From a virus, in the IMG/VR virus record IMGVR_UViG_3300045993_000425, positions 102,844-166,843 of that record: a DNA stretch of 64,000 nt; one strand, 5' to 3'. Positions 41,906-58,500 of this stretch are shown here, piece by piece. Position 1 is the first letter of the stretch, and each line of letters opens with the position of its first letter. The notes beneath the pieces were generated by a model. It did no database searches. It had not been told where the DNA came from and saw only the letters and a list, made by a program, of their open reading frames with translations. The translations under genes were made by a program, and so were the position numbers.

Positions 41906-42658
41906 GTGCGGGATGCCTACCCATTCGAGCGATTCCGAGCTCTAGTTGAGCAGGCGCAAGACCTTGCCCCGAAGCACCAGTTGGGCGAGTGGAAACAACA
42001 AGATAGCTACCCAGCTACCGCCTTCGCGAACTGCAAGACCTGCGGCATGGGTGTGGTTGTAGACCTCGAGCCGCTAGCCCCCTACCTGGCGATAGACGGT
42101 GAGGCAATGCGCCGGGAGTGCATCAGCCAAGAGCAGCACCACCAGGACAGAATGCTGCATAAAAGGACGGTCAAGTTCGACAGGACTGGTCCGACCTGTG
42201 CCTTCTGTCTCAGGTTGCCCTCTGTCTCTGGTGGGTTCTGCTCCGACAGTTGCCGACACGAGGCCAGGCTCAGACTTAGCCCTCAATACGCCAGGAGCTG
42301 CTGCTTCGAGAGGGACCGAGGCATCTGTAGGAGGTGTGGCAAAGATACAGAGAGGCTTGCCAGGAGGCTAGCTACTCTCGCTCTGAGAAGAAGCAGAGCC
42401 TACTACAAGCTTAAGCAAGAGCTACTCGACCTGGGCTACCCTCCAGGCCGAATAGCTAGTGCCAGCCTCTGGGACTGCGACCACATCAGACCGGTACACC
42501 GCAAGGGTGGAGCCTGCGGCATGGACAACCTACAAACACTATGTATTCCCTGTCACCGTAGGAAGACCAGTGCTGACTTCAGACCTACAGTAAGACGAAG
42601 TCCTGGCTTTCTGGAGAGCCCTGAGTGCCTCGATGGCCTGAACGGCGATCTTGAATAG
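41906..42658 (+). CDS. HNH endonuclease with zinc fingers
   Basis: RDRGICRRC...DHIRPV..GG....NLQTLCIPCH..KT. Confidence 0.88.
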   Translation: MRDAYPFERFRALVEQAQDLAPKHQLGEWKQQDSYPATAFANCKTCGMGVVVDLEPLAPYLAIDGEAMRRECISQEQHHQDRMLHKRTVKFDRTGPTCAFCLRLPSVSGGFCSDSCRHEARLRLSPQYARSCCFERDRGICRRCGKDTERLARRLATLALRRSRAYYKLKQELLDLGYPPGRIASASLWDCDHIRPVHRKGGACGMDNLQTLCIPCHRRKTSADFRPTVRRSPGFLESPECLDGLNGDLE

Positions 42659-43472: not shown

Positions 43473-43840
43473 GGACGACTCTAGATACAAAAGAGAAGAT
43501 CGAAAGATATTGGCCTGGGTCGAGGCTGACCTTTCACGGCAAGATCTTGTCGGCTAGGACTGTCGGCTTCATGCCGCAACTGAAGGTCAACGGAGTCGCT
43601 GTCTTGCCCAGCTACTGGGTCTGGGACCTGCTGGTCAAGACATCCTCTGGGCAGTACCAGTGTTTCAGAGGCGATCCTTCCGACCCAACCACCGTGTTTT
43701 CATTCGGGGATTGCAGCCGTCGCCGCAAGGATGCGGAGCAAACGTATGAGAATATGCTCGACCTCGCTCACCCCATCCCGCCTAGTAGAGGCGGTGGATG
43801 GCTGCTCGATGGAGAGCAGCATGGTATCAAAACTCCTTGA
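43469..43840 (+). CDS. hypothetical protein (start revised to MRTTLD)
   Basis: AAGGAGG RBS, ATGA overlap. Confidence 0.7.
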   Translation: MRTTLDTKEKIERYWPGSRLTFHGKILSARTVGFMPQLKVNGVAVLPSYWVWDLLVKTSSGQYQCFRGDPSDPTTVFSFGDCSRRRKDAEQTYENMLDLAHPIPPSRGGGWLLDGEQHGIKTP

Positions 43841-43871
43841 CTCAGGGATGGGCGAGGAGTATAAGGAACCC

Positions 43872-44093
43872 ATGAACGCAACGATCAACATGGTGGTGGT
43901 GACCAAGATGACCTTGGCGGCGGGTACGAAGTACTCCGTCGAGGACACCGTCAACGACTGCCTCTCTGAGAAGATGACCCTTGCGGACGACGCGGATGTT
44001 GAAGCGGTCTGCAACACCGACTTCTTCCACCTCTACACGCTGGCAGGCAAGACCATCTTCGTCGCTGTCGAGGACGAGGTGGTTAGCCAGTAA
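43872..44093 (+). CDS. small hypothetical protein (MNATINM...)
   Basis: AAGGA RBS. Confidence 0.6.
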   Translation: MNATINMVVVTKMTLAAGTKYSVEDTVNDCLSEKMTLADDADVEAVCNTDFFHLYTLAGKTIFVAVEDEVVSQ

Positions 44094-45084
44094 CTACCGG
44101 AACATGGTCGAATCCGACCTGTCTGGCAGCCTCTAGGATGTGGTGCCCATCAACCACCTCATGGAGCACCTGCCCATCCCCCAAGTCGATCTTTCGAGTC
44201 CTGATGGGTCTTACCTTGCCTGGTGTCTCGACCAAGGCCTTCGCATCCCTGGCTACCTTCCACTGATCTGCTGGAAGGACAGCTACCCCAGACACTTGGT
44301 CAATCGGGACATGGATGAAGCCATCCTGAGACGGCTTCCAGGTCTTCATCGGCTTAGGCGCGTTTGGGTCTTCTAGATGACCAGCCTCAATGTATCTAGC
44401 CATCATCTGGGGACCTACAGCCTTATTGGCAGCGATCTTGTTTCTGCTGACCGCAAAAGCATACCTTGGCTTCCTGATAAACTCAAAGCCAGCCCCTCCA
44501 GCATACCTCTCGACCATGTCGTCGTCCATCACACCATCGCAATGACTCTGCTGGATCGGAACAGCGAATCCCCACCCCCTGTGAATCAATTTCTTGGGAT
44601 GATCTCCGGTCCCCGTGTTCTTCAGCTCCCAACCCCAAGGCTTAAGGTACTCAGCGAGATCCTCTGCTCGCATCCCCTTCTGGAGGGACTCGCTCTTGCC
44701 CATGTGGCGAAGGCGTGGCTCCTCTCCTCGAGGGACTCTCTTGAAGTTTCTCTGGAATGCTACTTCGTCGTGCTTCTCGCCAATCCAAGTGACTAGGCCC
44801 TCGGTAGTAAAGCCGAATCCTGGGATCAAGGTAGTGAGGGCGCAGCGGCAATGAGGGTGAAGGAGGCTCCAGCTAGGCCTATCAGTCCCCTTCTTGTGGT
44901 AGCCAGTCTCTACCTCGCTGGAGAGCCAGACTCGAGGTGTCACCCCATCTGGTAACATATGGATCGTCCTGCATTCGTCGCAGTTGTGATTGATTATTCC
45001 ATTTTCAGAGCGGTACACACCGCCCTCGACAGTTAGTTCAACAACCGTCGCCACCCTCTTCGACTTCTTCGTTAGGCGACCCAC
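44083..45084 (-). CDS. split-intein C-part + MuF C-terminal Zn motif + HicA-like + ParB-like domains
   Basis: GTG start; ...VELTVEG...NGIINHN|CDEC...HPHCRC; LKPWGW...GDH..L.H....VPI; VVDGHH..EAA...G...VPV. Confidence 0.82.
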   Translation of the reverse strand: MGRLTKKSKRVATVVELTVEGGVYRSENGIINHNCDECRTIHMLPDGVTPRVWLSSEVETGYHKKGTDRPSWSLLHPHCRCALTTLIPGFGFTTEGLVTWIGEKHDEVAFQRNFKRVPRGEEPRLRHMGKSESLQKGMRAEDLAEYLKPWGWELKNTGTGDHPKKLIHRGWGFAVPIQQSHCDGVMDDDMVERYAGGAGFEFIRKPRYAFAVSRNKIAANKAVGPQMMARYIEAGHLEDPNAPKPMKTWKPSQDGFIHVPIDQVSGVAVLPADQWKVARDAKALVETPGKVRPIRTRKIDLGDGQVLHEVVDGHHILEAARQVGFDHVPVVTG

Positions 45085-45824
45085 TTCTGAAACCCCCTTC
45101 CTTCTTCGATGAAGGCTCTGACTGTTGTCACAATGTCACTATCCTCAAACTGGTCCTTGCGGCACACTAGCCTGATTACCCGAAAGCCAGCCTTCCTGAG
45201 TCGTTGATCTCTGGCATAGTCGATCTTTGCCGTAACCGAACCTCCGCTCTTCTTAACAAGCCGGTCTCTCATATCGTGTCCAGAGCCGTCGTATTCAACA
45301 ACCACACCGTAGTCAGGAGCGTATTGTGCAACCACATATCTAGCGTAGAGGTCCCAGTCATGTACCTCCATTCCGTATCGCTCAAGGACTGCCGCCCGAC
45401 CTTCAGTTCTAATCAGAGTGACGATATCGTTAATATTACTACGCCAATACGACCAACTATCTGCGTGTCCACGCATAAACGATTTAGCCCTGAAAGAATG
45501 AGACAGTCGCTGTCTTTCTCCCTTACCAACCACCTCATCGGCAAATACCACATCATGAGACTCGTTGAGTAACCGAGCCTCGATGAAACAGTACGTCGGC
45601 CCAGCCTTGATCAGCACCGGATGATCTGGCGTGCAGCAAATCCTGCGTCCATTGTCGAACTCAAGGTCCAGCACTTCAGACTCTTTCTTTTCTGTATGCA
45701 AGACCTTGCGTCCTCGACCGACCCCAGGAGAACTAGGATTATCTAGAAGGTCTCCTTTGACCAACTCACCGACCGGTTTAGCCCCCTTCCTGAAAAGACA
45801 TACCTTTTCCGATTGTTCCAAGCA
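44983..45824 (-). mobile_element. split intein: IntN + Vsr/DUF559-like endonuclease (45072..45824) and a 34-aa IntC (44983..45084) in another frame
   Basis: DDRL|CLEQ...CTPDHP; VVEYDG.GH...D.ARDQ.L...G.RVIRL; IntC ends HN|C. Confidence 0.8.
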
Positions 45825-46352
45825 GAGCCGGTCGTCCTTGACCGGGATGAAGAACACTACCGGATCATCGACACCTAGTCCACTATTGATCTGGATGATC
45901 CCATCCCTGAGCCCCATCGTCTTGGCGTTCTCGTTGCTCGTGACGACGACTCTCTCTACGTTGCTCCTGATGGAGTCCCACAGCTCGTGCATTTCACTTT
46001 CACAAGTATTCTGGAACTCATTTGAGTCAATACGCCCACGATGTAGGTCTTGGAGGAGGGATTGGATGCTGTGCCTGGTCTTCGCCTTTGCCTCGCCTCG
46101 GTGCTTCTCGATGTATTGCCTGGCGATCTCAGCCACCCCACTGAGGAGGTCGGTATCCACCCTACCCCCTTCCGCCTCAGTCGCGCTAGCAAAGATTCCA
46201 GGGAGGCTGTAATCCTTGTGTGTCGTGATGAACAGGTTCCGACCCGTCAGCCCATGCCCCAGGAGGCGGGTGATCAGCGAGTCAAAGAGCAAGTCCACCT
46301 TCTGGTCAATGGTGCGACCAGCTGCGGCTGTCAGCTTAGGAAGCCTCGGCAC
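45072..46352 (-). CDS. MuF-like head morphogenesis protein N-part + intein N-part + endonuclease
   Basis: Directly downstream of the portal; VFFIPVKDDRL precedes the intein Cys. Confidence 0.8.
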   Translation of the reverse strand: MPRLPKLTAAAGRTIDQKVDLLFDSLITRLLGHGLTGRNLFITTHKDYSLPGIFASATEAEGGRVDTDLLSGVAEIARQYIEKHRGEAKAKTRHSIQSLLQDLHRGRIDSNEFQNTCESEMHELWDSIRSNVERVVVTSNENAKTMGLRDGIIQINSGLGVDDPVVFFIPVKDDRLCLEQSEKVCLFRKGAKPVGELVKGDLLDNPSSPGVGRGRKVLHTEKKESEVLDLEFDNGRRICCTPDHPVLIKAGPTYCFIEARLLNESHDVVFADEVVGKGERQRLSHSFRAKSFMRGHADSWSYWRSNINDIVTLIRTEGRAAVLERYGMEVHDWDLYARYVVAQYAPDYGVVVEYDGSGHDMRDRLVKKSGGSVTAKIDYARDQRLRKAGFRVIRLVCRKDQFEDSDIVTTVRAFIEEGRGFQKWVA

Positions 46353-46353
46353 A

Positions 46354-49300
46354 CTAGGCTCCAGCCTTCGGGATCTGCCTGTCAGCTACATCGCTGACGA
46401 TCTCAGAGACATCCTTGATCATCTGCTTGGCTTCTGCTCGCCAGGCGTCCATGATCGCTCTGTTGGTGGCAGCGATCTGCTCCTTCAGCTTCTTCTTCGC
46501 AGCCGGTAACTGGTGCTCGCCCTTCTGGAGCCCCTGGCCGACAGCCTGAATCGCCTGGTCGATGCCAGAAGCTAGTTCACTGCCCTGAGATGGACCACCC
46601 TGCTGGGAGCCTCCATCCTGGGCAGGAGGTGCCCCACCCTGCTGTCCTGGGTCGCCACCCTGCTCTGCCCCACCACCCTGGCCTGGAGGCCCGCCTTGGG
46701 GCTGCTGGGCCTGTTGCTGGGCTTGCTGCTGTTGAGCCTGCATCTGAGCTTGTAGCTGCTGCCATTGCATCCACATGGGGTTCTGGTAGAAGGCCTTAGC
46801 TGGATCCTTGGAGGCATCCTTGACCCCCATCAGACGCTCCTGAATCTCCCCAAATGTCAGGTACTGGGTGATGTTCTGCCAAACCGTTGGGTTAAGAGGG
46901 AAGGTTCCGGTCAGTTCTGGCCCAACCGGGTCTTTCTCCACCTTCTGGAGGATTTCATCGTAGGTCAGGTGTAGAGGAGCATCCTGCTGGAGGCGAACGG
47001 ACTCCTTCTCCTCTGTATCGATATCTAGACCGACTAGGTGGATGCGGCAGATCTTGGAGAGCTCACGGTCGATGAGGGGTAGGATGTCGGCACTGAGCCA
47101 ATCCTCGAGCTGTGCCAGTAGGGGGCGGATGCCGACATCTCTGGCTGCGGTCAGCTTATATTCCTCATTGGAATTGTGAACTACCGCACCATCTAGGATA
47201 AAGGAGTGGTCCTCAGAATACATCTCGATATCGACCATAGGCACTGTCACACCCAGGTCTTGCAAAGCCGTCACCTTCTCAATCCGACACTCTTCAAACC
47301 AATCAGGAGGCGATACCTCACACAGCCCAAGAACACGACGCACAAACTGCGACGAACACTTCGTTCTTCCCTTGATTGCGGAACCAACGCTGTCCCGCAA
47401 CCCCTTCTCCAGCCCACCAAACAGCGAGGAATCAGCACACATCTTAAGAAGCCGCAACGCAACGCAACGAGGAAGGTCCCCGATGTTCCAGTTCTGCTTC
47501 CTGTTCTGCTGCTTGCGAGGTTGAACGAACCCGATCTGCTTCCAGAACTCCGCTCTGTCCTTAATCGAAAGTTTGTAGCTGAAGCGAACCTCACCAAATG
47601 ACTCTCGCCAGAGTCCTTTCAGTGCGAGAGTTCTAATTCCAAGCCCAAGCAACAACTGTCTCGTCTGATCTCGCAGAGCATCATTCTGACATGTCAGGAT
47701 TACTGAACCATTGGATGTGCGATGACCATCGGCAGAGAATAGCCCCCTTAGGTAGGCTTGCCGATATTCAGCAGGAAGAGCATGAACAAAGGAAGGGATC
47801 ACCTTTCCAGATGTAGAATCACCGAACCCTAGAGACATCAACCACCGAACAAAGTCAGTATCGTAGACCACATTCTGGATATTGTGGTCTGACACGCTCG
47901 CAAAACCGTACTTGATCTTTACTGCCTCCACCTTCTCGGAAGATAGCTCACTTCTCTGATTCTTGTTATTGAGTCCCCAGGCTGTCAGTACCTCATGATG
48001 GTGCCTCCATACATCAACCTCATTGTGGTGCTGGTATAGCAACTTGAACTGAGCCCCCACTCTGCTCTTTGGAGGGACAATGCAACCATCACCAGCAGCC
48101 CAACCGAGGATTTCCATCATGTCCACGGTTAGCTTGCGCCCCTTGAACGAAGGAATCTCACTTTCGCTACCATCAACCATCTGTCCATTGACGAGAACCC
48201 AGTCACCAATGACCAAGTCCTCTTGTCGCTTCCATGCAACATCACCAGTATCGTCAACTACACGAAACCGATGATCTGGAGATGTCTGGATGATGACACC
48301 ACAAGCGAGCTCAGTCTCTACCAGCCTCTTGTCGCCAGACCGGAACATCCTTCCCGGCACCCACTTAGAACCACTCCAGAACTCTCCTTCCCTAGCGTCT
48401 AGCCCATCAAGAAAAGAAAACGCCGAAACAAGCCCAAGATTTTTGACCAATACATGACCAGTAAAGGGGAAGCATTCAGAAAGAGACTGGCTATTGGAAC
48501 CTCGAGTATTGTGTACAACCACGCCTTCAGCCATAAAGACATGGCTATTATCGTAGACTTCGATGTCCACCATCTCGACTACATCGTCACTTCTATCGCA
48601 AGACAAAACCGACTCAAACGAATACTCCGATACCCAAACTGGCAGGGGTTGTCCATGCTGTTCGGCGTATCGCTCAACGATAGAGCGGCACCGATAGGGA
48701 GTCTTGGGGTCGATCAGAATGTGGCGGATGTCATCACGATCCGCTCCTGACACATCTTTTCTGGCCCTGATCTCGTTCGCAAGCCGAATCGCTACAGAGG
48801 CCGGAATCTTGTCCCACTTACCAAGGCTATCGTGCGGTTTCTTCTGTTCCTTGTGAGGCTGTAGGAATCCGATGACTTCATCGTATTTCCTCTTGTCCTT
48901 GATGAATAGCTTGGACTCGCCAGCGACTAGAGTCCTCTTGGGCTTGCCTGGAACGCCACTCCACTCCCTCTTGTGCGTACCTTCGCAGGCGCGAGTCCTG
49001 ATCCCGAGGCTCAGGAGAAGCATTTTGACATCGCTTCTGAGAACGTCATCAAAAACAGTCACCGAAGGGGTTCCTGACGGCTCCCTAGTCCCATCAGCTG
49101 AGAACAGCCCACGAAGGAATGCCGCCCGGAGATTTCTCGGAAGAGAGTGCAAAAACGAAGGGATCCTCTTGCCGTCAGCCGAGGGACGGAACCCAAGCTC
49201 GATCAACCAGTCTACGAACTTCGTATTATGGAGTGTCGCACTCAGGCGCACAGGAGCGATGGTTTTTACGTCGCAAGCGTCCTTGTAGTACTGAACATCA

Positions 49301-51141
49301 TCATCGCTGAAGTGCCTGTCTCGAACTGTTGGTGTCAGTCCCCAGGAGGTCATGGCAGCTACATGACGCTCTCGAATCCAGGGTTCTTTGACGTGATGGT
49401 AATAGAAGTGAAGCTCCTTGCTGTGCTTTACCTTACCGTTCTTACGAACCAGCAAGGAACCATCTCCAACCAGCCAACCAAGCACCTCCAACATCCCTTC
49501 ATCCAACGTCTTGCCATGATAAGAAGGAACCTTACCGGCTCCAGGAACTTCATTCCTGTTGACGAGAACAAAGTCACCCTCGTTCAGATCTTCCTGACGC
49601 TTCCATACAAGACTGCCGTCATCAGAAACGATTCGGAACAAGTGGTCTGGAGATGTCAGTAGTTTAGAACCATTCGACAGCTTGGTAGTGCAGACCCTGC
49701 GAGGACCGCTGACGAAGGCTCGAGCGTCTACAAGTGCCTCACCTGTCCATACCTTGAAGCCAGAGGCCTCCTTCTTGTCGCCTAGAATCTCACCAATTGT
49801 CCTACATCCTTCATTGGTCCATACGCGAGTGTCGCGATGTACGCAAAGGTGCTGATAGCCCGGCACTTCTTCAGGAGAAATCTGGAAAGCAGCCATGATC
49901 GTCCTGGCATTGCTGTCTGCCAGGAACTGGAACTCCATATCCCTGCCACCCGAGTCAATCGGCTGCCAAGTCAGTTCATCCTCTGGTCCGATACCGAACA
50001 CTGGCATCCGCCAGCTGTTACTGGCTCCATTGATACTAGCGTTGAATTGCTGCTTGACGGCTTGCACCACCTCGACATCGACATCGTTGGACTTGATGAC
50101 CAGCATACCTCGGCTGGCTCGACCGTTCTGGAAGTATACCCGATTGTGAGTCCCGATATTGATATGCGTGGTGACCGCATTGATGGCACAATCCAGAGGG
50201 GTAAGAGGATACCCCTGAAGCTCGATGTCAGTCACAGGATAGAAGTTATGGACCAACATCTCGTCATGTGCGAAGGCCTGCATGGGGCGGCCCTCGATGA
50301 CCTGCACCCAGGAGTACTTGTCTGCCTCGAATAGTTCAGGCTTTAGTTTCTCATTCTTGAGGCGAGACAGGAGAGCGACAGCCTCCTCCCGAACCCGCTG
50401 GCTGGCCTCTCTGTTATGAGAAGCGAAGTAGATGGTGCCCGCATCGGTGGGACGGAAGGAGTGGAACTTTCGCTCATCTGGCCTAGCTGGGTCCACTACA
50501 TGAATGACCTCTGTCGCAGCTCTACCCACCACGATGCCATTGCGAGTCGTCATGTACAAAAACTCACTGAAGCTGCACCGGTCCTGGGTGTCCCATCCCT
50601 CGAGGTGACCACAAGTCAGGAGCAGCTTCTCGGCACGGTCGATCCTCTCCTGTAGGATGTCCTTCTTTTTGTCATCCAATTGGTCGAAGATGGCAGGGTC
50701 TGGCTCGATGACGAAGCCCTTGCTGTGCCGGTCACGCTGCTTCCGGCCGAACTGACCAACGTGATTGCTTCTGGTGTGAACGATTGCCGCAACCAGATCG
50801 TCCTGAATCGCGATTCGTTTCAGGAGGCTGTCTGGAACAAGCTGTACCTTGGCACGATAAATGCTTGCGTATTCGGTAATGCGGCTTGGGTCGCGCTCAA
50901 AGGCCAACCGCTCGATGCTGTCATCGGTTCCATTCAGGACGTTCAGGATGCTCTTGGACAGTGCTCCCTCATGCCTCCAGCCACCAGGCAGGGCTGGTAC
51001 ATCCTGCTTCATGACAGGCTGGGTGACATATCTGATACCCATGCCTCGGCGCACCTGTACATCGTCCGTCTTCTGGAGAGGGCGGTCGATAGCGATCTGC
51101 TGAATCAAGTCTGCGAGCAATGGCTTAGGCGGCTTAGGCAC
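46354..51141 (-). CDS. portal protein with two inteins (about 715 aa after splicing)
   Basis: Follows TerL; GYPLTPLD, YFQNG...RGML, RDMEFQ, AFQISPEE, GIRPLL. Confidence 0.92.
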   Translation of the reverse strand: MPKPPKPLLADLIQQIAIDRPLQKTDDVQVRRGMGIRYVTQPVMKQDVPALPGGWRHEGALSKSILNVLNGTDDSIERLAFERDPSRITEYASIYRAKVQLVPDSLLKRIAIQDDLVAAIVHTRSNHVGQFGRKQRDRHSKGFVIEPDPAIFDQLDDKKKDILQERIDRAEKLLLTCGHLEGWDTQDRCSFSEFLYMTTRNGIVVGRAATEVIHVVDPARPDERKFHSFRPTDAGTIYFASHNREASQRVREEAVALLSRLKNEKLKPELFEADKYSWVQVIEGRPMQAFAHDEMLVHNFYPVTDIELQGYPLTPLDCAINAVTTHINIGTHNRVYFQNGRASRGMLVIKSNDVDVEVVQAVKQQFNASINGASNSWRMPVFGIGPEDELTWQPIDSGGRDMEFQFLADSNARTIMAAFQISPEEVPGYQHLCVHRDTRVWTNEGCRTIGEILGDKKEASGFKVWTGEALVDARAFVSGPRRVCTTKLSNGSKLLTSPDHLFRIVSDDGSLVWKRQEDLNEGDFVLVNRNEVPGAGKVPSYHGKTLDEGMLEVLGWLVGDGSLLVRKNGKVKHSKELHFYYHHVKEPWIRERHVAAMTSWGLTPTVRDRHFSDDDVQYYKDACDVKTIAPVRLSATLHNTKFVDWLIELGFRPSADGKRIPSFLHSLPRNLRAAFLRGLFSADGTREPSGTPSVTVFDDVLRSDVKMLLLSLGIRTRACEGTHKREWSGVPGKPKRTLVAGESKLFIKDKRKYDEVIGFLQPHKEQKKPHDSLGKWDKIPASVAIRLANEIRARKDVSGADRDDIRHILIDPKTPYRCRSIVERYAEQHGQPLPVWVSEYSFESVLSCDRSDDVVEMVDIEVYDNSHVFMAEGVVVHNTRGSNSQSLSECFPFTGHVLVKNLGLVSAFSFLDGLDAREGEFWSGSKWVPGRMFRSGDKRLVETELACGVIIQTSPDHRFRVVDDTGDVAWKRQEDLVIGDWVLVNGQMVDGSESEIPSFKGRKLTVDMMEILGWAAGDGCIVPPKSRVGAQFKLLYQHHNEVDVWRHHHEVLTAWGLNNKNQRSELSSEKVEAVKIKYGFASVSDHNIQNVVYDTDFVRWLMSLGFGDSTSGKVIPSFVHALPAEYRQAYLRGLFSADGHRTSNGSVILTCQNDALRDQTRQLLLGLGIRTLALKGLWRESFGEVRFSYKLSIKDRAEFWKQIGFVQPRKQQNRKQNWNIGDLPRCVALRLLKMCADSSLFGGLEKGLRDSVGSAIKGRTKCSSQFVRRVLGLCEVSPPDWFEECRIEKVTALQDLGVTVPMVDIEMYSEDHSFILDGAVVHNSNEEYKLTAARDVGIRPLLAQLEDWLSADILPLIDRELSKICRIHLVGLDIDTEEKESVRLQQDAPLHLTYDEILQKVEKDPVGPELTGTFPLNPTVWQNITQYLTFGEIQERLMGVKDASKDPAKAFYQNPMWMQWQQLQAQMQAQQQQAQQQAQQPQGGPPGQGGGAEQGGDPGQQGGAPPAQDGGSQQGGPSQGSELASGIDQAIQAVGQGLQKGEHQLPAAKKKLKEQIAATNRAIMDAWRAEAKQMIKDVSEIVSDVADRQIPKAGA
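47173..48474 (-). mobile_element. portal intein 2 (434 aa, LAGLIDADG-type endonuclease)
   Basis: SE|CFPF...TSPDHRF...LGWAAGDG...LRGLFSADG...VVHN|S. Confidence 0.93.
48508..49845 (-). mobile_element. portal intein 1 (446 aa, LAGLIDADG-type endonuclease)
   Basis: HL|CVHR...TSPDHLF...LGWLVGDG...LRGLFSADG...VVHN|T. Confidence 0.93.
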
Positions 51142-55550: not shown

Positions 55551-58500
55551 TCTCTTCAGCCTCTGCTGCCATGACCGCTTCGATACGACGACCCAGCCAT
55601 CTGATCACGGGAACAGCCATGCTGTTGCCCAAGGCCTTGTAGCGGGGACCATCGGCTTTCTTTCCGAAGGGAAGCAACGTATAGGAATCTGGAAATCCCT
55701 GAAGCCTCTCACACTCCTTAGGGGTCAGACGACGAACGGCAGCACCTACCCGAGTACCTGGAGCGTTCTCAACTTCTGTTGGAGACACGATACGAACCCC
55801 TCGATCAGTCTTCTTCGCCTCCGCTACAGTCGTCAGCGAGGGAGCTACATCGATAGGTACGATCTGAAGCTCATTGCCTGATTTCGAAGCCGGGAACATG
55901 TCGAAGACCACTGAATTGGGTTGCCCCTGAGCCTTCAGAGTCTGGTGCGGGTCTTCCATGTCGAGATGAGCCACATTGCCTCCTGAGCCTTGGTTAACAC
56001 TAACTAGCTGACCGATGGGGTTGAACATCACAACAGCGGGAGGGTGAGCCCCAGAAGCAAGAGGGTGACACGGGTCACCAGGCTTGGGGCTGGAGCGATT
56101 GGCAGGATGCGTGAGCTGGGTAGTGTCGAAAGCCAGAAGCACAGCAACAGATGGAACGTGGTTTGTTGCGCTGATCGAGTGGCACGGCACTCCAGGCACA
56201 GGATTGGATCTGTTTTCCTTATCCGAGATGTGTCCAGTGTCGAACGGAATCACCGCATACACAGTGGGAGGAGTGCCTGTATCTAGGGGATGCACCACCG
56301 CATGACGGTCGACGCAGTTCAGGGTGTAGGTGGTGCCATCATCAAGCACCTCACCGTACTGAGGACCATTCTCAGGCTCTCGGCCGATGGCTGCACCCTT
56401 GATGCAGTAGGTAGGAACTACCACAGAAGGACCACAGCCTCCATTCGCATGAGACTGATCGTGGTTGCCAGCACGAAGAGTTGGTGACACCTCTCCCGCA
56501 TCGCCACCATCGCTTTTGCTGGAGAACGCAAGGACACACAATCCATCGGTCTGGAAACCGGGAGACGGAGTCTGAGAAGCACCCCGGCTCGACCTTGCCA
56601 TCAGGGGAGGGACGACAGTCTCTCCGAATACATTGCAAGCACCCGGCCCATCCGAAGAAAGGGCATCGCTGACCCTGGCATCAGGCTTGATCCCGATCTG
56701 GTTGCTGGTCTGGCTGTTGCGAAGTTGGCGAGGACTTATGAAGCCAGGAGACAGTGACGGAATCAAAGCACCGTTCTTGTTGATGTCCCCATTATCTGAG
56801 GCTCCGCACATCCCACCACCTGCGGTCAGGGATTCTGCGATGTCTGGAACAGCGGATGCCTTGGAGACGACAAAGGTGTCCTGAGCGTCCCTGCCGGTTC
56901 CGAACTGGTTTCCGCTGGGACCACCACTCAGGCAGTAAGCGGGGTTGGGGAATCCGACAGGCTGGAGTCCTCCTCCACACTCGAAGTCTGTTCCGAGCCC
57001 GCCACCAGCTGTAGAGCGTGAGCTAATTGTTTCGGTAATACTTTTCCCCGCTTCTCTGCGCGACGGAGGATCCCGAGGCACGCCTTCTTCGATAGGTAGT
57101 AGCGCGTCTCCACAGGCCCATCCTCCAGAACCTGCTCGAGAAAGCACAAAGACACGTCTGCGCCGCTGGGCCACTCCGAAGTACTGGGCATCAAGGACTC
57201 GCCACGCTGCCGTCCTTTTGGGTCCAGTGACCAGACCCGAACGGCTCCATTTGCCGTCTGGGACGATGGGCTCTTCTGCACCGACCAATCCCGCCAAGAA
57301 ACACCCGAATGCGTTGTCTTTGGAGGTGAGGACTCCTGGGACATTCTCCCAGAGGATCCAGGCTGGCTCTTGTCCTGCGTCAACTCTTCGGCGGTCGATG
57401 GCATCTGCGATCCTCACAAACTCAAGTGAAAGGTTTCCACGCTGGTCAGAAAGTCCCTTACGAAGTCCCGCCACCGAGAAGCTCTGGCAGTTGTGAACCA
57501 CGGCTCCGTTGAGGATGTAGGAGTGATCTTCCTCTACTTCGATATTATACACCGTCTGGGTAGTTCCAGAGGAAACAAAACCAGAAACACGCCGCAGTAG
57601 ATGTTGGTCGATCTGATACGACTTCCTAGAAACAGATGCGTGGTGAGCAGACATCGTCCAGTACGACTGCTGATTGACGGTTCGACCTTCGATGACAGTG
57701 GTTGGCTTTTTCTCGTTCCAAACAAGGCTTCCAACCCATCCAAGAGTCTGGACTAGGTCACGCATCCCGAAAGCCAGAGCAGGAGACACCGAATTAGCAA
57801 CCCAGTGAGTGTCTGATACCGTATGCCCATCCGTGGCCCGATAGCCAGACACCAACTCACCACGGTTCTTATCCGACAATACCCAGGAAGGAATCCTCTT
57901 CCCTTCTGAATACATCCCAAAGTTGGACTGAAGCCACTTCGCAAGCTCAGTGTCGCAGATTTGAATCTTGTGAACCGTTCTTTCCTGAGACACAGAGTAC
58001 CGAAGCTTTGGGAACGACCGCTTGAATACCTCTAGCTTGGCAGCAGACAGTCCCAACAGAACCATGCATCGTTCACCTTGCCAACGCACCCATCCATCAC
58101 CAAGATACCAACCAGCCATCTCCATAATCTTTGCCGATGTCAGGGCAGAGGTCGGAGACGTTACAGAGTGTTCATCACCGAACTTGGTTAGAGCAACCCA
58201 GCAGGCCCTATCGCTAGATGTGGTCTCCTGACCAACCAGCTCAGAAGCAGGAATCCAACGAGAATCAGAGATGGTCTCAATCCTTGCGTACTTGCCGTTG
58301 CGGCGAGTGTTCTGTGAATTGACCACCCTAGACAGGTAAGGGTGATTCGGTGTGGTGACATGGTCTGGCTGACCAACCGCCGACAAGTTGCCCACAAGCT
58401 TCTCATCTATGCCGACCCGAACCACTCGTCGCAGTCTACCGAGAGATGTCACAACCAAGTCACCAGACTTCACTTCCTCAATTGGAAGGTATCCATCGCT

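Follow-up and report, generated by a model that had tools for sequence, protein, structure and literature searches.

A probable naturally split intein with a truncated in-frame Vsr-like nuclease in a MuF-like head gene of a Myxococcus-phage-like virus

The window analyzed here is a stretch of 64,000 nucleotides (nt), positions 102,844 to 166,843 of the IMG/VR record IMGVR_UViG_3300045993_000425, from the metagenome assembly of a 167-kb Myxococcus-phage-like (Mx1-like) virus. It contains a MuF-like head gene that is divided between two overlapping open reading frames (ORFs) on the minus strand, each of which carries one half of a candidate intein, referred to as IntN (N-terminal half) and IntC (C-terminal half). 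The upstream frame, ORF-N (45072–46352; 426 amino acids (aa)), has a GTG start located one base past the portal stop, and the downstream frame, ORF-C (44083–45084; 333 aa), likewise starts with GTG. The GTG of ORF-C (45084–45082) is embedded within AAG-TGG of ORF-N, the TAA of which occupies 45074–45072; the two frames overlap by 13 nt, and ORF-C is in the -1 frame. A Shine-Dalgarno-like motif precedes the ORF-C start by 8 nt, inside the codons for the ORF-N tail, and the ORF-C frame is closed 18 codons 5' of its start in the window and 24 codons 5' in L001, the contig of the closest split relative.

An earlier note, made from the letters of the window, had described ORF-N as entering an intein at DDRL↓C (the arrow marks the splice point) and stopping without a splice C-terminus, and ORF-C as beginning in another frame at a GTG, with a 13-nt overlap, an upstream motif, and a 34-aa IntC ending in HN↓C; the ORF list and the DNA agree with this description in each respect. 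ORF-N reads ..FFIPVKDDRL176↓C177LEQSEKV.. and CTPDHP at residues 240–245, and it continues through ..VVVEYDGSGHD.. to the terminal ..GRGFQKWVA. ORF-C opens with a basic leader, followed by ..VVELTVEGGVYRSENGIINHN34↓C35DEC..LHPHCRC... A homologue search with either ORF revealed uninterrupted proteins, namely P0002 (694 aa, on a 175-kb contig), P0003, P0004, and P0007, that read ..D-x-x-L-C-D-E-C-R.. across the junction, and, in the cultured Myxococcus phage Mx1, the protein WNM70317 (258 aa), encoded directly after the portal gene, contains ..VVVRDQHL-CDECKK..LHPHCRC.. unbroken. Since these homologues run through the point of interruption, the extein junction is exact: omitting residues 177–426 of ORF-N and 1–34 of ORF-C gives the exact family sequence. 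The earlier note had proposed that the joined exteins restore D.RL-CDEC...HPHCRC, and this is borne out by P0002, P0003, P0004, P0007, and Mx1. The intein site, D-x-x-L↓C-x-x-C, is situated about 45 residues upstream of the HPxCRC motif. The features of the locus are collected in Table 1.

Table 1. Features of the candidate split intein gene, in window coordinates
Feature	Position	Strand	Basis or remark
N-extein (ORF-N aa 1-176), MuF-like minor head protein	45825..46352	-	both termini align with uninterrupted P0002, P0003, P0004, P0007, and Mx1
IntN, ~104 aa (ORF-N aa 177-~280), C-terminal limit approximate	45513..45824	-	family alignment A1, profile A2, L001 model
Homing-endonuclease region, first helical segment (ORF-N aa 281-348), in frame with IntN, no intervening stop	45309..45512	-	
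In-frame deletion junction, between 45309 and 45308	45303..45314	-	142 aa missing relative to L001
Vsr/DUF559-like nuclease core, C-terminal half (..VVVEYDGSGHD..DYARD..RVIRL..), and conserved tail ..GRGFQKWVA	45075..45308	-	
Shine-Dalgarno-like GAAGGAAGGGGG	45093..45104	-	8 nt 5' of ORF-C start
13-nt overlap, ORF-C GTG to ORF-N TAA	45072..45084	-	DNA
IntC, 34 aa (ORF-C aa 1-34): basic leader, then blocks F/G ..VVELTVEGGVYRSENGIINHN	44983..45084	-	eight-sequence IntC alignment
C-extein (ORF-C aa 35-333) and stop; C35-DEC +1 nucleophile, LHPHCRC, long C-terminal extension	44083..44982	-	

The two-ORF split recurs in six further metagenome loci from different samples (L001, L005, L006, L007, L008, and L023), the last five of which were found through a scan of IMG/VR, an ORF script, and contig look-ups. 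In L001, which encodes P0006, a protein that starts with an IntC-like leader, the upstream ORF ends with ..NRGFRSWPT-stop and the ATG lies 13 nt before that stop. The bases of the overlap differ between L001 and the window (ATGGCCCACCTAG and GTGGGTCGCCTAA, respectively), and the proteins share 59% identity for ORF-N and 66% for ORF-C, with less to the other loci. The 13-nt overlap, composed of different bases, is common to L001, L005, L006, and L023; in the last three, the start ATG arises where a conserved Trp codon follows an A (nnA-TGG). L007 displays a 14-nt overlap with a GTG after AAGGAG, and L008 an overlap of 20–53 nt, both in the other frame relation. Every locus possesses its own ATG or GTG, and a purine-rich motif is located 8–10 nt 5' of the IntC start in L001, L005, L006, L007, and L023. 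A single open frame runs from IntN into the nuclease in the window and in all six loci.

At the protein level, a phmmer search with the intein and nuclease of L001 (390 aa) against 1.8 billion cluster representatives (clusters at 50% identity) returned 81 matches, 23 of them at E<1e-10, most of the strong ones being 530–620 aa long. The strong matches extend from aa ~170–217 to the C-terminus, and the proteins of about 20 clusters comprise the N-extein, IntN, and the nuclease, followed by a stop. Of 22 intein-bearing sequences inspected, 21 were cut by a regular expression at the same extein site, D-x-x-[LTVM]↓C; for P0084, the cut failed. The family alignment A1 shows no variation at the intein Cys1 or at the Thr and His of block B, and its conserved tail, F-x-x-W/C-x-x-stop, encodes the overlapped ATG or GTG. 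A tblastn search with IntN and the nuclease against 50,697 GenBank phage records yielded no match; the module is therefore present in no cultured phage of that collection and has escaped annotation.

This recurrence bears on the possibility that one contiguous intein-bearing gene only seems divided, owing to an indel from sequencing or assembly, or has recently been pseudogenized by a mutation. Although a single-base change would fuse the frames and the contig stems from a metagenome assembly, the six loci share the stop/start layout with diverged nucleotides, and the proteins of about 20 clusters terminate at this position as well, which leaves this explanation hardly credible. The earlier note had itself raised the indel, and the comparison of homologues (six independent loci, diverged nucleotides, two frame relations) implies no fused frame; the split is real, and an indel is excluded as far as sequence comparison allows.

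The same loci speak to a second explanation, in which the intein is truly contiguous: a programmed -1 ribosomal frameshift would join ORF-N and ORF-C, and an intein with an internal nuclease would then splice in cis. The -1 frame of ORF-C, the overlap of just 13 nt, and the existence of a contiguous relative, P0077, are in keeping with such a scheme. However, the overlaps of the window and L001 contain no X-XXY-YYZ slippery heptamer, and the start codon and purine-rich motif found from locus to locus also count against it. In addition, L007 and L008, with overlaps of 14 and 20–53 nt, are in the other frame relation, and thus no common frameshift could serve the family. A conserved frameshift site was rejected on the absence of a slippery heptamer and the two frame relations among the loci, and we regard frameshifting as very unlikely.

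The splicing motifs are well preserved. The first intein residue, Cys177 of ORF-N after ..DDRL, occupies a column that is invariant in A1; block B carries T-x-x-H in the form of T241-P-D-H244, the Thr and His of which are likewise invariant; and the C-terminal H33-N34↓C35 of ORF-C corresponds to the HN↓C found in eight of eight IntC sequences. The alignment of these eight sequences shows the common pattern G-V-x-T-V-V-E-L-x-V .. Y-x-S-x-N-G-x-x-x-H-N↓C-x-x-C, and the last 21 IntC residues match the block F/G pattern of the ends of both portal inteins of the same genome (..EGVVVHN↓T and ..DGAVVHN↓S). In the window copy, every residue that is invariant in the IntN family has been retained, as have the conserved motifs of IntC; its IntC, with the basic leader, bears a net charge of +3 and its IntN of -2. 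Compared with the PDB, the N-part of profile A2 matches the gp41-1 split intein (E 1.4e-5), which is its best sequence match, as well as other inteins and Hedgehog. Residues 1 to ~100 of the structural model of L001 resemble intein N-halves (Prp8, Z 7.1; Npu DnaE IntN, Z 6.9; gp41-1, Z 6.8), where Z values below 8 are weak alone. With the window intein and nuclease remnant as a single sequence, phmmer against the PDB gave the NrdJ-1 intein at E 0.7 as the sole match, and a PHROGs search with both ORFs gave one weak 'homing endonuclease' match (E 0.003). With the motifs kept and the layout with an overlapping start recurring in six independent loci, the split-intein reading of the earlier note is upheld: the locus likely encodes a naturally split class-1 intein at D-x-x-L↓C-x-x-C of the MuF-like head gene, the halves of which would trans-splice the exteins into one protein.

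The nuclease attached to IntN is best understood from L001, in which it is intact. An AlphaFold2 (AF2) model of the L001 IntN and nuclease (390 aa) reached a predicted local distance difference test score (pLDDT) of 87.8, and structures were compared with VIA-align. Residues 276–390 superimpose on Vsr (1cw0_A) with Z 13.1 and a root-mean-square deviation (rmsd) of 2.2 over 110 aa, on the catalytic domain of I-Bth0305I with Z 11.4 and an rmsd of 3.1 over 96 aa, and on the DUF559 protein 3hrl with Z 11.3. The C-part of profile A2 also matches 3hrl in sequence (E 3e-5), and the same profile had no sequence match to I-Bth0305I (3r3p) at E<=10. For Pfam DUF559 (PF04480), L001 scores 32.8 bits against a cut-off of 20.6, and the window ORF-N remains under it with 18.2 bits (E 0.0023). 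Between IntN and the nuclease core, the model contains about 170 residues of confidently modeled helices, which, by analogy to I-Bth0305I (PMC3239194), presumably constitute a DNA-binding part.

The window copy has suffered an in-frame loss of 142 aa, such that residues 173–314 of the L001 query have no counterpart either in a BLAST comparison or in a search of its own genome; one of the matched segments, at 148152–148667 of the genome, equals window 45309–45824, and no second copy of the module was found in that genome. The deletion removed the helical DNA-binding region, the SKPE helix, and core strands 1–2 with the family-invariant Ser and Asp (S279 and D308 in A2). The first helical segment, which aligns with P0064 up to residue 212, remains, as do the second half of the core (E-Y-D-G-S-G-H-D and D-Y-A-R-D) and the tail, with 53% identity to the C-half of L001. 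Because the DNA-binding region and half of the catalytic core are gone, and by analogy to the part that the equivalent Asp51 plays in Vsr (PMC2677866), the window nuclease is most likely an inactive relic. The Vsr/DUF559-like endonuclease that the earlier note placed on the N-half is thus confirmed as a fold in the intact relative, while the copy in the window is truncated. Since the retained 3' part holds the Shine-Dalgarno-like motif and the ORF-C start, this may explain its survival.

The host protein is identified with less certainty as a member of the MuF family of SPP1 gp7-like minor head proteins. Among 37 intein-free homologues, 10 match Pfam Phage_Mu_F (PF04233) at E<=0.01, the best at 3e-4, all under the curated cut-off; P0013, with 19.1 bits against a cut-off of 29.6, nevertheless covers profile positions 2–111 of 112. 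PHROGs gave weak matches to minor head and head morphogenesis proteins. The gene order portal, then MuF-like gene, is common to the window (portal at 46354–51141, then ORF-N), L002, and Mx1. The protein thus appears to be MuF-like, without certified Phage_Mu_F membership: the position after the portal gene supports the label of the earlier note, 'MuF head gene', and the distant, sub-threshold Pfam match falls short of it. In the C-terminal part of ORF-C (window 44083–44700, minus strand), there is a long, variable extension, the end of which, ..HHILEAARQVGFDHVPVVTG, resembles the tails of relatives; the extensions of relatives include a HicA-toxin-like segment in P0002 (E 2.4e-5, under the cut-off) and a ParB_N-like tail in P0011 (E 0.008). 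The C-extein of P0006 (L001:1285–2721) reads HPNERC at the motif that is an invariant HPHCRC in the 37 intein-free homologues.

Several variants of the element exist among the relatives. In L023 (P0075), the whole nuclease is lost; the upstream frame ends with ..EWRA-stop, and the 13-nt overlap and IntC are kept. P0077 is a contiguous form, in which, owing to a deletion, the early nuclease helices continue in frame into ..VIELTVEGGIYQSANGMISHN↓CDIC. It matches Pfam Intein_splicing to the profile end, across the segment that corresponds to IntC (30.9 bits, E 2.8e-7), and, on the N-extein tree, is the sister of the split, nuclease-bearing P0066; its AF2 model, obtained with the mixed alignment A4, has a pLDDT below 50 from residue 357 on and is uninformative for the IntC part. 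The N-exteins of P0077 and P0066 appear much more similar to each other than the two inteins do (58% identity for residues 1–365 overall), a contrast that suggests faster intein evolution or intein replacement. P0077, which derives from Logan SRR14092371, carries a second insert within the HPH↓C..GQ↓CRC motif besides the contiguous intein at D-x-x-L↓C, and hence two inteins in one small head gene.

To follow the distribution of the intein, a maximum-likelihood tree was built from 77 N-exteins, of which 21 bear the intein and 56 are free of it (P0084 was left out). The window allele nests among the intein-free P0002, P0003, P0004, and P0007 with support of 100/98, and both portal inteins are likewise missing from the close relative L002, whose portal protein has 700 aa compared with 1595 aa in the window. 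Over the tree, the intein label changes nine times (8–10 in bootstraps; at least five changes are forced by well-supported branches), compared with a mean of 18.6 for shuffled labels, and, as the rows come from two differently aimed searches, the counts of gain and loss are indicative only. The scattered distribution is compatible with repeated gain through homing, with loss, or with both.

The restriction on these counts is one of several points that weigh against a functional split intein in the window. Pfam Intein_splicing gives ORF-N 16.8 bits against a cut-off of 35.8; a low score is expected for a fragment, and with it below the cut-off, the identity of the intein rests on the motifs, the family profile, and the model of the relative. 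By direct reading, block F of the window IntC is without the Asp/His common in many inteins. Furthermore, IntN carries a truncated nuclease remnant of about 146 aa, which possibly misfolds and could hinder assembly, and the head-protein copy of L001 may be diverging or itself decaying, as indicated by HPNERC in place of the invariant HPHCRC.

These points touch on a third explanation, according to which the halves no longer splice and the head protein consists of two polypeptides, either held together non-covalently through IntN and IntC or independent. Such an outcome would suit an element that is past its mobile phase, as the decayed nuclease of the window suggests, and there is a precedent in NrdA of phage Aeh1, a fractured gene whose products, as described in PMC3045599, assemble non-covalently via interaction domains. 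However, Cys1, the block-B Thr and His, the terminal His-Asn, and the +1 Cys are kept here and in relatives of less than 50% identity, including nuclease-less copies, which is expected only if the splicing chemistry is under selection. We therefore consider the loss of splicing unlikely and prefer the trans-splicing intein.

The course of events that we infer for this intein involves translational coupling, trans-splicing, and, in its relatives, homing. A scan of 43600–46800 for promoters and terminators found nothing above chance; with no such signal between the portal gene, ORF-N, and ORF-C, the three are probably co-transcribed. The ORF-N product would consist of the N-extein (176 aa), IntN (~104 aa), and the decayed Vsr-like remnant (~146 aa), and the ORF-C product, the translation of which is probably coupled to that of ORF-N, of IntC (34 aa) and the C-extein (299 aa). 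IntN and IntC would associate into one HINT fold, in which Cys177 would form the thioester, Cys35 of ORF-C would attack it, and Asn34 would cyclize. Ligation is predicted to yield a head protein of 475 aa, joined at ..KDDRL-CDEC.. as in the intein-free relatives. In the relatives, the intact in-frame nuclease presumably promotes homing into alleles that lack the intein when phages co-infect a cell; in the window phage, it would have been inactivated by the 142-aa deletion, with the splicing parts and the overlapping start retained.

The phage genome is unusually rich in inteins. The portal gene (window 46354–51141, minus strand; 1595 aa) contains two LAGLIDADG inteins and matches Pfam LAGLIDADG_3 (E 8e-18), Intein_splicing (E 1e-16), and Phage_portal (E 3e-10); the portal proteins of L002 (700 aa) and Mx1 (686 aa) have none. 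An Intein_splicing match above the cut-off is located outside the window, at 86769–87689 of the genome (plus strand), in a 539-aa frame, and a match to the C-terminal block of the same profile at window 57490–57600 (minus strand), in a 1090-aa frame. Also outside the window, at 77675–77830 of the genome (minus strand), a second weak DUF559-like match (E 4e-4) in a 684-aa frame may mark a further element with a nuclease. A free-standing HNH endonuclease gene (window 41906–42658, plus strand; Pfam HNH E 5e-8) is situated about 1.4 kb from the split gene, and in L001, an I-HmuI/NUMOD-like gene directly follows ORF-C.

If trans-splicing occurs as proposed, naturally split inteins would occur not only in replication and packaging enzymes but also in a protein of virion assembly, and a head component would be made by post-translational ligation. 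As diverged natural split inteins with a short IntC (33–38 aa) and Cys at +1, the members of the family would also be candidate orthogonal ligation tools. Tentatively, and with slightly greater doubt than confidence, we further propose that the in-frame fusion of IntN to a Vsr-type nuclease with a separately translated IntC is a stable, selected architecture rather than a passing stage of decay. If so, the intein would be bifunctional and made of two polypeptides, and it would be the first whose Vsr-type homing endonuclease is encoded in frame on the sense strand. The mobile element itself would carry the embedded start and Shine-Dalgarno motif of IntC, and the excised complex of IntN-nuclease and IntC would be the active homing enzyme. 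Literature searches on inteins with MuF, DUF559, and head or structural proteins returned no description of an in-frame IntN-nuclease with a separate IntC, and the review PMC7765530 contained nothing pertinent.

Among known systems, the nuclease is related to I-Bth0305I, the 'EDxHD' Vsr-like homing endonuclease described by Taylor et al. 2011 (PMC3239194) as intron-encoded and free-standing. The relatives of the window copy share with it an N-terminal helical DNA-binding region and a C-terminal catalytic domain of the Vsr fold, whereas the window copy has neither the DNA-binding region nor the first half of the core; by sequence, the nuclease here is nearer to DUF559 (3hrl) than to I-Bth0305I. 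Canonical bifunctional inteins with LAGLIDADG or HNH nucleases, such as PI-SceI and the two LAGLIDADG inteins of the adjacent portal gene, similarly bear the nuclease in frame after the N-terminal splicing blocks and use class-1 residues. In contrast to these, the frame here ends after the nuclease, IntC is a separate polypeptide, and the nuclease has a Vsr-like fold.

Gosselin, Arsenault, and Gogarten (bioRxiv 10.1101/2025.01.02.630785) described inteins in MuF-like minor capsid proteins of actinobacteriophages with an antisense ORF for a VSR-like homing endonuclease (HEN); according to them, VSR-like HENs are otherwise known only from the split inteins of Dassa et al. 2009 (PMC2677866), and they raise, as a speculation, that an ORF on the same strand might come into frame. 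The host protein family, the nuclease superfamily, and a non-canonical HEN architecture are common to both systems; however, their inteins are contiguous with the nuclease on the opposite strand, whereas the present one is split, with a sense-strand nuclease in frame with IntN. The antisense layout does not apply to this locus: its antisense ORFs (45204–45572, 45631–46212, and 44377–44796) have no Pfam match.

The closest counterparts are the fractured genes of Dassa et al. 2009 (PMC2677866), the source of the gp41-1, NrdJ-1, and IMPDH-1 split inteins. In these, a stop closes IntN, and 27–51 nt of non-coding DNA with a hairpin separate it from a free-standing GIY-YIG or Vsr-like gene, which overlaps the IntC ORF by 6–69 bp; the hosts are eight enzyme types, mostly of DNA synthesis and repair, plus IMPDH and phage terminase. 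Both systems consist of two adjacent, co-oriented ORFs of phage origin, each with an intein half, broken at the canonical endonuclease insertion point, and in both the 3' end of a Vsr-like nuclease overlaps the IntC start (here by 13 nt; 13–53 in relatives). Unlike in the fractured genes, there is no IntN stop or spacer here: the nuclease is a C-terminal extension of IntN in frame, only the nuclease/IntC boundary is broken, with the 5' flank alone lost, and the host is a head-morphogenesis protein. In the model of Dassa et al., loss of the flanks of the nuclease gene leads to an in-frame intein. Were the present architecture a stable one, it would represent the half-way form between fractured genes and contiguous inteins, with one flank lost, that their model implied and that they did not observe. 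The occurrence of the arrangement in about 20 clusters fills a gap in the model for the interconversion of fractured genes, bifunctional inteins, and mini or split inteins. Onward routes from this form are visible in the loss of the nuclease (L023 and the window) and in re-fusion (P0077).

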